Part shown: positions 1 to 27,000 of the stretch, in pieces | How positions within the stretch are numbered: the first letter of the stretch is position 1 | How the letters are laid out: each line of letters begins with the position of its first letter | Source: Mytilus edulis | Taxonomy: Eukaryota | Length of the DNA: 64,000 nt | Direction: 5' to 3' | Assembly: GCF_963676685.1 (NCBI RefSeq) | Contig: NC_092351.1 | Coordinates: forward strand, 41,416,001-41,480,000 | Position numbers: made by a program

Positions 1-3000
1 TATTTTACAAGTATGCATTGTTGATATTTATATATAAATGATTCGGTAGATGTTTTGTCATTGCAGCACAATAACATTTAATTTTCTTGCGAGAAGAAAA
101 ATTAATAAACTTATGATTTAATAGAAAAGAAGAAAGCGGAACAACCATATATATGACATATATATCCTGTAGCAAATAATCGTCTATTTTGTAAAACTTA
201 AGTTTACCAATGTTCAAATCTGGTACATCGATTAGAAATCTAGAAATAAATCAAGATAATAAAAAAAAACAATTCAGGAAGGCGTCACATTTAACATTAT
301 AGAAAAAAAACTTTATTGTTCAGATTAACGTGACTGTACTTACAGAATTATTTGGTAGCATACCTTTTAGCAAACCTTCGTAAACTTACACGAATTGAGC
401 TCCAATACGAACCTACATAAGCTTACACCAATCATTTGCTCGCATTATTTACATCAGCTATGTTAATTCATGTTAAAATTGTTTTTATTTTATTTCACAG
501 ATACATCATCACAATGTGATAACTGTCGGCAGTATTTACCGCCAACTACTATCCAACAATTGGAGCACAACATTTGTATTCAAGACAAGACAGTACTCTC
601 TGCATTTAAAAGGAGAAAGAATTGTGCTGATGATTTCAGGGTATTATCCGTTAGATTGGGATGTATTGGAAGTGTTAACGTTGTCATTATCCTTATTGGG
701 ATTTTTATAATCATTCTAGATTTGTTACCAGAAGTGCCAAGACGGAATAGATAAAACAAAAACAAAACAGACAAAAATACAGATACCATGTCAAATAAAA
801 AAAAATTGATGGAAGGTTTAATTGTATAAAAAATAGGAAAAGAGTATAACGAGAATAAGTATTAAAAACGCAAGTGCTACTTTTTTATATTCAATTTCTT
901 TTAAATGATTATTTCGCTAAAGCGTTTGTTTACAATTTCAAAACTATTCTTAAAAGACCCTATACAATATAAATAGCGATGTTGGTCAAATAACTCATGT
1001 ACTGTTTTACATCATTGTCGAAAGAGTTTTACTTGTATGATGCAACTTTCCTAGAGGCTATTAAACAAAGCGAAAAAAATGTAATGGTAATCATATCTTC
1101 GTAAAAAGGGACAAAAATTATAAAGGGATATTCAAACTCATAAATCGAAGACAAACTGACAACAGCATGGCGAAAAACAAAAGATTAGTACAATCTACAT
1201 TCCACAACATAACAAACAAAAGACTGAGCAAACCGTGGGTGATCTCAGGTGAATAGAACCAACAGACCCTTCTACGCATGCGGCGCTGTTGGTGTTGCCC
1301 ATGTAAGTACACTTCCGGTGATAAGACTAATCTGGTGGTGTTACTTTCAATGAACAGAGAACAGGATTGGGTTTACAACTGTTTTAGAAAGTTTGATTAC
1401 GACATAGATGTGTAAATATTAATACAGAAATTAACCCATTTCAATCGAAAGCAGATTGTCAAAATTGTCAAATTTCATTGAAGTAAAATCCCAATTAAGT
1501 AACTGTCAGGAAAAAAAGGAAATAATCAATTATCATTTTCAAAATTGTCCATTTATAAAGAAACTAGGCTTTTGGAAGGATTTGGCTATATATTTTGTTT
1601 TAAATATTATGTTTGGTAATATAGATCTTTAATTGTTTCGGTTCTTATAAATACTTGGCCTTCGATTCTTTGGCATTAAGCGTCCCCGATTGAGATTGAT
1701 CTAGAAAAGCGCTTTGGACGCATAAAATGTATATAACGGACTGTTTTCATTTTATTTTTCGCGCGTCCGTCGCGCTTATCTTGATAAACACTCATCAGAA
1801 ACGACCAAACCAAAAACGATAAAAGCCAATAGTTTATGTATTATACTTGAGTACGTGATGAGATGTATGTCATAAAATGAATGGCCAACTACATAGTATG
1901 TCAACTTTGCGAGAGGAATTTGGAACTCTACTAACCTAAATATTTTTTAATCTATAAACGGATAGGTTATTGAGATAAGCGAAACTGTCAATATCACTTT
2001 ATTTTTGATATTATAATTCCATTGTAAATATGTGCGTCTACGTCGAAAAATAAGAAAACAAATGAATAATCAAGAAAACATAACTTCTTTTCGTTCGAAA
2101 ACTGTTTACTGTAGAAAATTAAACAGAAACTTAAAAACTCATGTCAAAGAATCAGATGAAATGTTAAAAGTAGCTTAAACGTTTGATAGGTTGACACATT
2201 TCAAATTTCATTTATTAACAAGGTATTCATGCATAACAGGAACCCAGTCCAAGAAGTTTGAACGACATCCTGCACTACATCAAATGAGATCTACTCATAA
2301 TACTAATATATACTGGGTTGTAATAGATTGATTGATTGATTGGTAATGAACGCCACGTTCAGCACTCCTGTGCTAAATCTTAGTGGTCAACTTTTATTAG
2401 TTTAGAAAGCTGGGGTGTTTGCCATGCGCAGGTTTGAAAAAAGAGGTTGAGAGGGTATTATATATGTATCAGTACATTTAATATTCTTATCCAATAAAAC
2501 ATGTTAGAAACAGAGAACAGATACCCAGGTGGCAAAAAGCATGTTTTGAAAGGCAGATATTCTTAAGAATAATATGCCGGAGTATGTAGGTGAACAAACA
2601 TTTTTTTGGGACTGTGAAATCTGAAGTAACTTAGATAGTTACATGCTTTTGTTGAAAAGTATTGTTGTTTGAAAAAACGGGCCGGGATTTATTTGAAATT
2701 TATGTTATCATAAAACTTCTTTAAAGTTATCAGTTTTATCCCAAACAGTATTCAGTATGCATAACGACAACAGAATACGAACAAACTATGCTCAGAAAGT
2801 TAACTGTAGAATAATTGACCAAATTTATTTATACTTTCAGGTATTTGATCATGGAACGTGATCAGCGTAATGATTTTGGACAGGCATGTAGAGAATCTGG
2901 CGGGGTTTAATATGTTTGTTAGTTTGATGCGTAAAGCAGCATATCTTCTAATGATACAAACATGGCATCATTCTGAAAATGCATTTTCTATTTCCTGCTG

Positions 3001-24000: not shown

Positions 24001-27000
24001 ATAATGTAAAATGTGTATTGCGGTACGGTAAAAAAAAGGCCTATGACAAATATTGTCTTTACATGAGTATAAAACAACTAGGTTGATTATGTTTCCATTA
24101 CAAGTTTTCAAGATTATTAAGTATAATTATATCAAAATCGTATATAACAGAATTTAGGACAATCAACAGACATCAACATTAATCAGCAGTAATTAGCATC
24201 TTTTTTTCAACTGACTGTGATCTTTACAAGTTTCTATATAGTTTATTCCTTGTCATTTATTATGGGGCCGAATCGACGTGGGAACGGATCGACGCGGGCC
24301 TGATCGACTCGGGCCTGATCAACTTTGGGCCAGATTGACTTGGGGTCGGATCGGTTTGGGCCGGAACGACCGGTTACCATGTTAACTAGTTAGGGTAGTT
24401 AAACAACTCCTAGTAGTGGTATTGTCCCGTTGTTTTTTAGAGTCTCCTTGGTGTCTTATGTCTCTTTTTATATAACAATTAGTTCATAAAATTTGTACAG
24501 TTTAACTTTATACATGTATACTAGAAGATGCCCGCGAAATAAGAAAGCATGCGTAAGAGCGTTTAAGACACGGATCGATAACGGTCTCCGAATTTGGATA
24601 TGTTCTAAAAAAATTGGCGTTTTCTGTGGAAAACAAATGGTTTCAAAAAGGAATTTAGGTAGTACAAAACACTACATTTATACGTCATATCACAATATTT
24701 CCGACCTATGGTCTCATTGGAGATTGCGGCTCGATTAAATGGGTTTTTCCTTTATTAGTATAGATATACAGTTATCAGCTGTGTTATGAATAGACAAATC
24801 TTACCAGTATTATTTAAAACAAGCCATTCTCCTGTAGATCCATATCCTGTCATAACTCCAATAGACTTGATAGAGAACGAATTCGGGTCATGCCAGGATA
24901 AAACTTCGTTTTGACACCTATCTACTCCTTTTCCAATGCTGATCGATCCATTTATCCACGAAATCCAAAATGCTTTATATTCATAGCAGTCCAAAACTCC
25001 AGAACGCATTAGTTTATACGATTCCACTTGTTGGTGGAATCTACGGATACGAAGTTTGAAATTTTGATTGGATCCAAAAGCAATCTCGTAATAGTTTTCT
25101 TTTGACGACATTTGCTTTGAGCGACATAATGAAACAAAAGCATTGTTGCATGCTTTTATCAGAAAAGTAACTGAGTTATCTATCTTGAAGCCGTACCTTG
25201 ACAACGAAGTGTGGTAGTCCAATATGTTATCCGGGTATTTGTATGCATCTTTGTTTCCAGTGTTATTGGTGTGAATAAGAATAACACAATTTCCTGTAAA
25301 AAATTGATCTTGTTACCTGACAATTTTACCATGAACACGTAGTTTTACCTGCGTATTGTTTTTATGCAAATAATCGTTCAAGATCAAATTAAAACTCTTG
25401 CAATATAGTCATACCTCCACATGAATCTCTGGATTGTCTTCAAATGATATCAAATTTAGATATAACATTAACCAGTACCAATTTTACTGTAAATTTGTAC
25501 ATTTGTACATTTGTACATTTTTACCAGATGCAATATGGTTTCAGTGATGTCGGAAGCTTTAAATCCTAAACATAATACACTGAAAAGCTGACCAAACCAA
25601 ACATTACAAGTTGGAGAAAGAGCTGTCCCATTGGTAATAATGCAACATCTATTAAAGTTAAAGTATGTTAACTGATGAAGAATGGTTTTTGTAAAAGATT
25701 ATATAACTGGAGAATTTCAGTAAAGGTGTCAAACTTTCGTAAAAAAATCGTAAGGGTTCCGCGGAACCCAGTGTCTCGCCTACTTTTGCTGTTAATCGCA
25801 GTCTGAACAAACATGAGGGGAAAAAATAATAAAATATTCCTCTCGATACTATCTTTTCAGTGTAAGAAGCTTCACTCCAAATTTTGGTAAAAATCAAGGA
25901 TAGTTTATGAATCAAATAAATGTTTTGAAAACTTTAACTGCAGGCTGTATGTTATGTTAACTGGAAGAAAAACTAAGTCATTTATAAATAAAATACGGAA
26001 AAACAGGTACAAAATTTTAACACAATTTCTTCTAGATCCTAGCTTTTGATCATAAACAAGCTTCTGTCCAAGTCTAGAACAAATCCAGGATAGTTATTAA
26101 AATTTAAAAAAAAAACTTTAACCAAATGTAATGTTTCCTGGTAGAAAAACTAAGTCCATTATAAGTGAAATACAGAAAAACAGGATTTTTTTTACACAGT
26201 TTACTTCTGGGTATTATTTTATGATCATAAACAAGCTTTTGTCCAAGTTTGGTAGAAATCCAGGATAGTTTAAGAAAATTATCAAAATTTCAAAAAACTT
26301 TAACCACAGAGTGAATGTAATGTTTTATGATAGAAAAACTAAGCTCGTTTATAAGTAAATACGGAAAAACTAGAATATTTTTTACTTTTTACAAAATCAC
26401 TTCTGGATACTATCTTATGATCATAAACCAGCTTCTGTTCAAGTTTGTTAGAAATCCAGGATAGTTTAAGAAAGTTGTTAAAATTTCAAACACTTTAACC
26501 AAGGAGTGGATATTTGCGGACGCCGCCAACGACGGAATGTAGGATCAATATGTCTCACTTTTTCGACAAAATTCGAAGGCTCGAAAATAAAATATACAAA
26601 ATATTTTTTCTGAAAAATGGATTTTCAAGGGTTGTAACCGTGGAAATTTAGGCCTTAGATAGACAAAAGGAATACGCTTACAATTTTGGTATGACTAATG
26701 GATAAATGGCTTATGCACTATCAAAATACATTAACTTTAAATGCTGATAAATGAAGTATTTTCTATTACCAACATCTAAAATGTATTATAAGTATTTCTT
26801 ACCTATCCCAAAGCAGGTAAAGATCAGGTAAACAATTTTCATCCTTTGGTTTATTTCTCAAAAATTTACCTCAAGTCATTACAGGAAGCAGTTTGTAACG
26901 TAGAATCGAACGATTCTGAATTGTAATATCTTTTATATGCATAGGATGCATATGAAAGAAAAAGTTATTGAATTACGCTTACAACACTGAAATTAATTTA

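Follow-up and report, generated by a model that had tools for sequence, protein, structure and literature searches.

Molluscs possess very large and poorly understood sets of lectin-like surface and secreted proteins. COMP, thrombospondin and matrilin contain extracellular, Cys-flanked oligomerisation domains made of short coiled coils. The C-terminal module found in the present locus resembles them in that a short heptad helix adjoins a Cys cluster, but the known domains are soluble, lack a membrane helix and have longer coils, and oligomerisation of the module is only inferred. No sequence relation between them and the module was found in Pfam or PDB sequences. Syndecan-type anchors and ZP-domain C-terminal propeptides are type I, with a juxtamembrane basic site and small-residue packing motifs. 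The module likewise shows a basic patch at the outer side of the membrane and small residues in a packing-type spacing, and it differs in that its tail carries no conserved motif. Syndecan (PF01034) gave no match in the window exons (E<=1) or in the best 150 of 1,015 module matches (E<=1e-3), and a ZP-type propeptide was rejected on the furin consensus R-x-[KR]-R, which only 4 of 149 module matches and none of the three window exons contain.

The domain PF12248 (Methyltransf_FA) links the window genes to arthropod FAMeT (PF12248 twice, or PF12248 plus DUF3421/DM9), described as two-domain proteins in the available part of PMC10015273. The window genes have instead a single PF12248, preceded by a signal-like exon and followed by a membrane anchor; a search of the window gave no DM9/DUF3421 match and one PF12248 exon per gene, and the arthropod architecture was rejected. 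PF12248 is also reported, in the accessible portions of PMC6003135, PMC8194122, PMC9382459 and PMC9363628, from secreted, non-enzymatic settings, such as Haliotis shell-matrix UP5, M. edulis shell-repair genes, sea-star footprint proteins and CPAMD8. By those partial descriptions, the proteins are secreted or multi-domain and none is said to carry the anchor module. The bivalve lectins CgCLec-HTM and ScCTL-1 combine a lectin domain with an anchor at the C-terminus, similar to 14 Lectin_C proteins among the best 150 of the 1,015 module matches; the comparison follows the description in a review (PMC12842671), whose accessible part terms the layout of C-type lectin plus C-terminal membrane helix "unique" and does not mention a conserved juxtamembrane motif.

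The window, a stretch of 64,000 nucleotides from Mytilus edulis, covers genes B and C and, of a third gene (A), only the last exon; Table 1 collects the coordinates.

Table 1. Predicted exons and repeat in the window
Feature	Position	Strand	Evidence
Gene A last exon, anchor module and stop	501..754	+	phase-1 acceptor; module HMM E 4.1e-13
Gene B candidate first exon, opening with ATG and coding for a short hydrophobic run	3457..3502	+	phase-1 donor G/GTAAGT
Gene B PF12248 (Methyltransf_FA) exon	5683..6165	+	Pfam match; phase 1 both ends
Gene B last exon, anchor module and stop	7481..7740	+	phase-1 acceptor; module HMM E 5.4e-21
79-bp tandem repeat, 3.1 copies	7691..7938	+	TRF
Gene C last exon, anchor module and stop	21516..21787	-	phase-1 acceptor; module HMM E 1.8e-20
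Gene C PF12248 exon	24805..25293	-	Pfam match; phase 1 both ends
Gene C first exon: ATG, 13 codons and 1 base, signal-peptide-like	26803..26842	-	donor G/GTAAG, phase 1

In all three copies the whole module is a single last exon which begins at codon base 2 (phase 1), and the acceptors read tttcacag/AT in A, tattttag/TC in B and cttttcag/AA in C (slash at the junction). The alignment of these exons has 16 invariant columns, including L-S, K-R, D-x-R, S, G and L. Comparing the exons by tblastn within the window gave E 1.7e-8 for B and C (38%, 69 aa), 0.012 for C and A, and 0.27 for B and A. We then searched the 2,132 six-frame ORFs of at least 20 aa with a module HMM built from 22 short matches, none of them from the window. 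It turned out that the three exons score between 4e-13 and 5e-21 and the next ORF 0.54, which places the motif far above chance and gives exactly three copies. The proposal of the initial annotation, three last exons with phase 1 and a common motif, is thus borne out by the acceptors, the alignment and the outside-built HMM. All three exons also keep the module invariants D-x-R, G and the D after the hydrophobic stretch. The span from G to D is 19 residues in B and C and 21 in A, where two residues (V-N) are inserted in the otherwise fixed span, and the tails past D are basic and 8-11 residues long.

For gene B, the first exon is a candidate that comes solely from scanning positions 760-5683 for exons that start with ATG and end at a phase-1 GT donor. 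The predicted exons of gene C (40, 489 and 272 nt) add up to 267 codons including the stop, i.e. 266 aa, and their phases and lengths fit the signal, domain and anchor model suggested for this gene. In these models, all frames of both genes are open, the phases agree at every junction, and exon order and strand are correct. Among database models, P0001 (M. edulis, 193 aa) alone comes close to gene C, with 96% identity to the domain exon; it is a single-exon read-through without signal exon and anchor exon. A word-index search found no protein of at least 157 aa containing the gene C last exon. PF12248 and the module are annotated together in the Mytilus paralogues XP_071123855.1, VDI72988.1 and CAG2205175.1, including a RefSeq model, and CAG2238220.1 combines both with a signal peptide and aligns collinearly with both B and C. 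B and C are predicted, as part of the best explanation, to be small single-pass type I membrane glycoproteins encoded by three phase-1 exons, and they are simply old paralogues, about 37% identical in the domain as in the module.

PF12248 was matched in the ORFs at 5667-6230 on the plus strand (gene B; E 2.3e-17, 63.5 bits) and 24755-25312 on the minus strand (gene C; E 1.2e-22, 80.6 bits), both above the curated gathering cut-off of 24.2 bits, which confirms that two of the three paralogues carry this exon. The two exons share 36.6% identity (E 1.4e-25), and the gene B domain lacks both cysteines conserved by the other nine sequences of the domain alignment. The AF2 model of the gene C exon is all-beta, with 11 strands, no helix of at least 4 residues and a mean pLDDT of 61.6. 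Its Foldseek neighbours are jelly-roll proteins: GH16 glucanases and galectin-10/-8 (E 3e-5 to 6e-4; TM 0.45-0.57), besides spike N-terminal domains and neurexin LNS. At moderate confidence, the exon can be placed among beta-sandwiches, close in fold to galectins and GH16 glucanases; the label "lectin-like" would denote no more than the fold resemblance of this model.

To define the module, we inspected the best 150 of 1,015 matches of a profile search at E<=1e-3, and all counts of partners below refer to these 150. The domains preceding it are Lectin_C (14), Sushi (3), WSC (2) and Methyltransf_FA (2), together with IgGFc_binding, VWA, Kringle, Ephrin_rec_like, SUEL, PLAT, HRM, PAN and I-set once each, as well as mucin-like ectodomains, i.e. 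more than 12 ectodomain types share one module. Of 30 matches that were looked up, 25 name an organism, in each case a mollusc (bivalves, Haliotis or Octopus). No Pfam family matched the module above cut-off in the window exons or in the best 150 of 1,015 matches, PDB sequences and named Atlas clusters gave no match to it, and literature searches aimed at the module found no description. The lack of a Pfam match supports the initial description of the block as unnamed. The view that it is a trait of these FAMeT-like paralogues does not hold, since in the best 150 of 1,015 matches it ends many unrelated mollusc ectodomains instead. Judged from sequence, the block is an unnamed, mollusc-wide, exon-sized C-terminal building block and not a feature of the FAMeT family, and this stalk-plus-membrane exon is likely a case of exon shuffling.

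In order, the module consists of a Cys cluster with a glycan sequon, a heptad helix, a basic patch, the motif S-A-x-D-x-R-x-S-S-x-x-I-G, a membrane helix from G to D of 19 residues and a short, positively charged tail. In 89 of 150 matches an N-x-S/T sequon lies close to where the module begins, and a C-x(0-3)-C cluster stands directly upstream of the helix in 105 of 122, gene B having a single Cys and no cluster there. The helix is short, put at 3-4 heptads or at about 2.5, and profile positions 13, 17, 20, 24 and 31 are hydrophobic in 83-97% of matches. R45, G52 and D70 are completely conserved (100%), followed by D43 (98%), S47 (96%), S32 (95%) and R36 (93%), and the small residues S48 and G52 are spaced by four residues. 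Of 154 rows, 149 have a G to D span of 19 residues, and 158 of 163 proteins continue for no more than 40 aa past the end of the module. Over columns 12-70, conservation has a periodicity peak at 95-100 degrees per residue, the power of which was reached by 4 of 2,000 shuffles; the heptad stretch alone (columns 12-32) is weakly periodic (210 of 2,000). In the AF2 model of the gene C last exon, helices occupy residues 24-34, 42-51 and 56-81, and the breaks at 35-41 and 52-55 mean that no single continuous helix is drawn. The expectation of membrane anchoring with the domain outside is supported by the signal-like exon of C, the hydrophobic helix, whose pLDDT reaches 97, the positive tails and the sequons.

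Since the conservation of the module tracks one helical face, we favour a self-associating display stalk. The module would keep the binding domains at the cell surface, and its conserved face, running along the stalk into the membrane, would gather module copies together; the upstream cysteines probably lock the associated copies, and in this way weak binding domains could act multivalently. PF12248 itself is predicted to be a binding module with a galectin/glucanase-like fold rather than an enzyme. Self-association is suggested by the hydrophobic heptad positions, the Cys cluster, the 95-100 degree periodicity and the S48/G52 spacing. The whole explanation, namely type I glycoproteins B and C whose mollusc-wide anchor module gathers copies and whose PF12248 serves as a binding domain, seems to us somewhat more probable than its opposite. 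Counting against the stalk are the AF2 helix breaks, the short heptads with their weak own periodicity and the single Cys in B, and against the explanation as a whole P0001 without an anchor and the moderate-confidence domain model (pLDDT 61.6, TM 0.45-0.57).

The same periodic conservation also fits a docking module, in which the helical face binds one common partner subunit, e.g. a signalling adaptor or sorting protein. On that face the invariant R would mark the outer and the invariant D the inner end of the membrane helix, and a single pathway would take input from many ectodomains, their tails being short and uninformative. The strict G to D spacing, the short variable tails (median 18 aa) and one module common to more than 12 ectodomain types agree with this. 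However, the invariant charges sit at the helix ends and not inside (1 of 149 matches has a charged residue within the span), and the Cys cluster with heptads suits self-association better, so we consider docking unlikely, though worth keeping in mind. Slightly less likely still is a sheddable precursor, whose juxtamembrane basic patch would be the target of a protease, convertase-like or otherwise, the anchor serving for delivery only and the freed ectodomain going to mucus, haemolymph or shell matrix. Of 149 matches, 129 have a dibasic pair at profile positions 34-39 and 111 have at least three basic residues. These counts and the secreted shell-matrix or adhesive PF12248 proteins reported in the available parts of PMC6003135, PMC8194122 and PMC9382459 are consistent with shedding, the latter being set beside the window genes by description only. 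Against this, K-R occurs in 60 of 149 matches and the furin consensus in just the 4 mentioned above, and about 40 residues conserved with helical periodicity exceed the needs of a cleavage site.

The remaining readings are much less probable than these. Splicing might not join the PF12248 and anchor exons at this locus, or the copies might be pseudogenes, as the anchorless P0001, the two-residue insertion in A, the lost domain cysteines of B and the end of its exon within a tandem repeat could suggest; the open frames with matching phases at all junctions, the right order and strand in both genes and the identical two-part architecture of annotated Mytilus paralogues, one of them a RefSeq model, make wrong models or decay improbable. 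Marginally lower we place a GPI-anchor signal, with S40-A41 as attachment site, a polar spacer and a removable hydrophobic end. Position 40 is S in 85% and C in 15% of matches and position 41 is A in 83%, about 10 polar and 18 hydrophobic residues follow, and the tails of the three window copies are short. Position 42 (omega+2) is nevertheless variable (P 17%, S 14%, D 10%), the residues following the helix form a tail of median 18 aa, with a net positive charge in 138 of 150 matches, and GPI addition has no need of the invariant D-x-R, G and D; a GPI signal was rejected on the variable omega+2 residue and the charged tail after the hydrophobic end. Least credible of all are true farnesoic acid O-methyltransferases, for which only the PF12248 family name speaks. 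The domain would face the outside of the cell, its model is all-beta with jelly-roll neighbours, and no SAM-methyltransferase Pfam family matched in the window at E<=1. According to the available part of PMC10015273, the methylating capacity of FAMeT was never reliably demonstrated in vitro and hormone levels of a fly FAMeT mutant are normal. The initial statement that these proteins are not methyltransferases agrees with all of this, and a misleading enzyme name is removed from the PF12248 genes here.

As a search key, the module could lead to membrane-bound receptors in mollusc genomes, being common to C-type lectin, SUEL, Sushi, WSC, VWA, Ig, mucin-like and PF12248 ectodomains, and its short invariant motif offers a mutable handle on receptor assembly, signalling or release. 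A bolder and rather doubtful idea is a phylum-wide, exon-shuffled "universal stalk", by which hundreds to thousands of molluscan surface receptors would be wired via the R/G/D face to a shared partner or to each other. If true, it would be an organising principle of molluscan innate recognition, comparable in role to vertebrate adaptor-paired immune receptors, with PF12248 proteins as one arm.

The remainder of gene A lies upstream of the window, and a PF12248 ectodomain is not to be assumed for it; the closest relative is P0002. Besides, the 79-bp repeat begins within the end of the membrane helix of exon B and copies the helix end with the stop, and more helix-like fragments were found by tblastn at 8093-8206, beyond this exon.

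A similar hydrophobic tail closes three open frames of the window, which has a G+C content of 0.28-0.36 and no N. These frames are the last exons of three paralogues, genes A, B and C (the ectodomain of gene A lies outside the window), and they encode a C-terminal unit made of a juxtamembrane segment and a membrane helix, which we call the module. Their alignment has 16 invariant columns, and the matches within the window have E-values of 1.7e-8 (B-C), 0.012 (C-A) and 0.27 (B-A). As a control for chance, an HMM built from 22 short database matches, independent of the window, was run on all 2132 six-frame ORFs; it recovered B, C and A with E-values of 5.4e-21, 1.8e-20 and 4.1e-13, and no fourth copy was found among these ORFs (next best E 0.54). 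Splice-site reading, alignment and independent HMM thus bear out the initial annotation, which had described three phase-1 last exons with a common motif.

Features of the window; for the last exons, phase 1 means that the exon opens at the second codon base, as read from the DNA
Feature	Position	Strand	Description
Last exon, gene A	501-754	+	polypyrimidine tract and AG upstream; phase 1
Last exon, gene B	7481-7740	+	polypyrimidine tract and AG upstream; phase 1
Last exon, gene C	21787-21516	-	polypyrimidine tract and AG upstream; phase 1
PF12248 exon, gene B	5683-6165	+	phase 1 at both ends; Pfam E 2.3e-17, 63.5 bits
PF12248 exon, gene C	25293-24805	-	phase 1 at both ends; Pfam E 1.2e-22, 80.6 bits
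First exon, gene C	26842-26803	-	ATG, 13 mostly hydrophobic codons, one base, then GTAAG
Candidate first exon, gene B	3457-3502	+	perfect G/GTAAGT donor
79-bp tandem repeat	7691-7938		3.1 copies
Helix-like fragments	8093-8206		gene B region
74-nt direct repeat	9566-9639 and 11848-11921		92% identical, 2.3 kb apart
WW-domain exon	14132-14395	-	PF00397, E 7.7e-8; between B and C
245-aa open frame	15256-15993	-	no Pfam match; between B and C
196-bp tandem repeat	25949-26501		3 copies; first intron of gene C
Ig-domain exons	50978-51310, 57617-57952 and 58790-59149	-	another minus-strand gene
Frames with arginine run	62796-63035 and 63210-63458	+	near-identical, about 414 bp apart

The PF12248 exons (Methyltransf_FA, a FAMeT-like domain) proposed for two of the paralogues both score far beyond the Pfam cut-off of 24.2 bits. 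The three predicted exons of gene C (40+489+272 nt) give 266 aa, the size originally assigned to it, and the first exon of gene B is a candidate only, picked out when ATG exons ending in a phase-1 donor were sought. For all spliced models, database searches used each exon separately. The closest database relative of C's PF12248 exon, and the sole close one, is a Mytilus edulis protein with 96% identity, and the window is taken to be of mussel rather than human origin. Genes B and C belong to the PF12248 domain family, not to the arthropod FAMeT architecture. The PF12248 exon of B has no cysteine at all, and two conserved cysteines are kept in the other nine aligned members.

Some local peculiarities are found around the last exons. 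In exon A, two inserted residues, V-N, lengthen the stretch that separates the invariant G from the invariant D across the membrane helix; P0002, the database protein closest to copy A, lacks this insertion. The 79-bp tandem repeat opens inside exon B, at the end of the membrane helix, and its units duplicate this helix end plus the stop codon; more helix-like fragments follow some 350 bp further downstream.

To define the range of the module, a profile of the three exons was searched against 1.84 billion representative proteins, giving 1015 matches at E<=1e-3 (10 at E<=1e-10); the statistics below rest on the best 150 of these (E 2e-21 to 3e-7) plus some cluster mates. In 158 of 163 proteins the match ends at most 40 residues from the C-terminus. 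By profile position, R45, G52 and D70 are conserved in 100%, followed by D43 (98%), S47 (96%), S32 (95%), R36 (93%) and L24 (92%). In 149 of 154 rows the stretch from G to D measures exactly 19 residues, and only 1 of 149 has a charged residue within it. Past the invariant D, the median tail length is 18 aa, and 138 of 150 tails have a net positive charge, which fits a topology with the N-terminus outside and the C-terminus inside; both the anchoring and the topology are deduced from such sequence features. Positions 13, 17, 20, 24 and 31 are hydrophobic in 83-97% of matches, a 4-3-4 spacing, and positions 34-39 hold a dibasic pair in 129 of 149. Upstream, 105 of 122 have a C-x(0-3)-C cluster (CxCxC is the commonest, with 49), and 89 of 150 have an N-x-S/T sequon. 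AlphaFold2 on C's last exon (50 aligned sequences; mean pLDDT 78.6) predicted a helix from 24 to 34, another from 42 to 51 and a long one from 56 to 81, with block means reaching 97. The module was seen as one phase-1 exon in the three window copies.

The proteins carrying the module have quite different ectodomains. Pfam on the best 150 of 1015 matches found Lectin_C in 14, Sushi in 3, WSC in 2 and Methyltransf_FA in 2, as well as IgGFc_binding, VWA, Kringle, Ephrin_rec_like, SUEL_Lectin, PLAT, HRM, PAN and I-set in one each; a regular expression for C-type lectin signatures had caught 1 protein and was replaced by Pfam. Mucin-like stretches, in which S, T and P make up 40% or more of the 80 residues preceding the module, are present in 37 of the 74 matches with more than 100 aa upstream of it. 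Among 30 matches looked up, 26 were named and 25 had an organism, all of them molluscs (25 of 25): five Mytilus species, two Saccostrea, Argopecten, Pecten, Mizuhopecten, Ylistrum, two Haliotis and Octopus sinensis. A word-index search with profile A3, the module alignment including the three window exons, returned 7 proteins only, with Magallana gigas among the finds. The three nearest Atlas clusters are all unnamed, and Mollusca is the commonest phylum among the members carrying one.

PF12248-like domains were detected by phmmer with the window exons in 3 of the best 150 module matches, namely XP_071123855.1 (P0123, M. edulis; E 2.4e-26), VDI72988.1 (P0088, M. galloprovincialis; 3.6e-14) and CAG2205175.1 (P0067, M. 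edulis; 4.7e-7). A cluster mate, CAG2238220.1 (291 aa), has PF12248, the module and a signal-peptide-like start, and is collinear with the domain exon and last exon of both B and C. At the level of sequence, such annotated proteins support the architecture predicted for B and C. However, P0001, the one close M. edulis model for gene C, counts against it, as this model reads through a single exon and lacks both the signal and the anchor exon. A word-index search with C's last exon among longer proteins gave no match, which, like the 7 proteins obtained with A3, is weak evidence either way. In a module tree (166 sequences, 68 columns), on which single origin was compared with shuffling, the PF12248-linked modules (the three window copies, P0123, P0088 and P0067) fall inside one 53-tip clade with support 0.77, and the same clade also includes modules following other ectodomains. 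Five proteins (P0003, P0009, P0147, P0004 and P0005) have two module copies; both are complete in two, and in the other three the first copy stops directly past the invariant G and is followed by another ectodomain, a layout that points to tandem genes merged into one, or to an internal donor site by which the membrane helix is skipped.

What the module does may be read from the periodicity of its conservation. The per-column information peaks at 95-100 degrees per residue, a peak reached by 4 of 2000 shuffles for columns 12-70, 25 of 2000 for columns 30-56 and 11 of 2000 for columns 52-70; the heptad part alone gave 210 of 2000. Such helical periodicity means that the conserved residues would line one helix face, from the stalk into the membrane, and this face, rich in S, A and G, points to probable helix-helix packing. 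We favour the reading that the conserved face, the cysteine cluster and the heptads let module copies self-associate, by which binding domains would be displayed multivalently. A complex prediction for three copies of C's last exon, in which the alignment was not used, gave a score of 0.01 and a mark of 0.32, with an uncertain fold, and weighs neither for nor against binding.

As a rival to self-association, the module may instead bind one shared partner. The ectodomain might also be shed by cleavage at the basic patch, but a furin consensus occurs in only 4 of 149 matches, and a furin site was rejected as the reading of this patch. The module was likewise considered as a GPI signal, which was rejected on its variable position 42 and on the length and positive charge of the tail, and as a syndecan-type region, which was rejected as no Pfam syndecan match was obtained for the window exons (E<=1) or the best 150 of 1015 matches (E<=1e-3).

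For the ectodomain, an AlphaFold2 run on the domain exon of C (only 10 aligned sequences) produced an all-beta model of 11 strands with mean pLDDT 61.6 and pTM 0.65. Foldseek found 86 PDB matches at E<=1e-3, headed by GH16 beta-glucanases (3e-5), galectin-10, the galectin-8 N-domain, coronavirus spike N-terminal domains and neurexin LNS, with TM values of 0.42-0.57 for the top matches; a PDB sequence search with the PF12248 profile gave nothing meaningful (best E 0.18). The model fits the concanavalin-like jelly-roll class and a binding module rather than a SAM methyltransferase. Methylase activity of FAMeT was never reliably demonstrated, according to the available part of PMC10015273, and with the jelly-roll neighbours this agrees with the earlier view that these proteins are not methyltransferases. 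As to the suggestion that they may be lectin-like, the predicted model resembles galectins in its fold but reveals no sugar site. Partial texts also place PF12248 in extracellular, non-enzymatic settings, such as shell matrix and shell repair (PMC6003135, PMC8194122), sea-star adhesive (PMC9382459) and CPAMD8 (PMC9363628).

The initial annotation could not name the juxtamembrane block as a known domain, and Pfam agrees: exons A, B and C are below every family cut-off, and no family covers the module in the best 150 of 1015 matches. PDB sequences gave nothing meaningful (best E 0.016, to membrane helices of serotonin receptors), and an Atlas search among named clusters gave no usable match. The accessible portions of the literature on the motif, mollusc C-terminal membrane regions, transmembrane C-type lectins and PF12248 contained no description of it. 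A 2025 review calls the C-terminal membrane helix of bivalve C-type lectins 'unique' and, in its available text, mentions no motif there (PMC12842671). The module-bearing sequences are already public as uncharacterised proteins, under names like 'uncharacterized', 'mucin-22-like' and 'serine-rich adhesin for platelets-like'; the novelty lies in recognising the module and in showing its range and the partners it has.

Besides, the WW-domain exon and the 245-aa frame are part of an unrelated gene. Pfam on the Ig exons gave Ig_3 (E 4.9e-12 and 1.9e-6) and I-set (0.0044), and the module HMM found no anchor module near them. Rfam gave no match within the window. The two copies of the 74-nt repeat may represent the termini of an inserted element, and the frames with an arginine run look like repeat-element copies.
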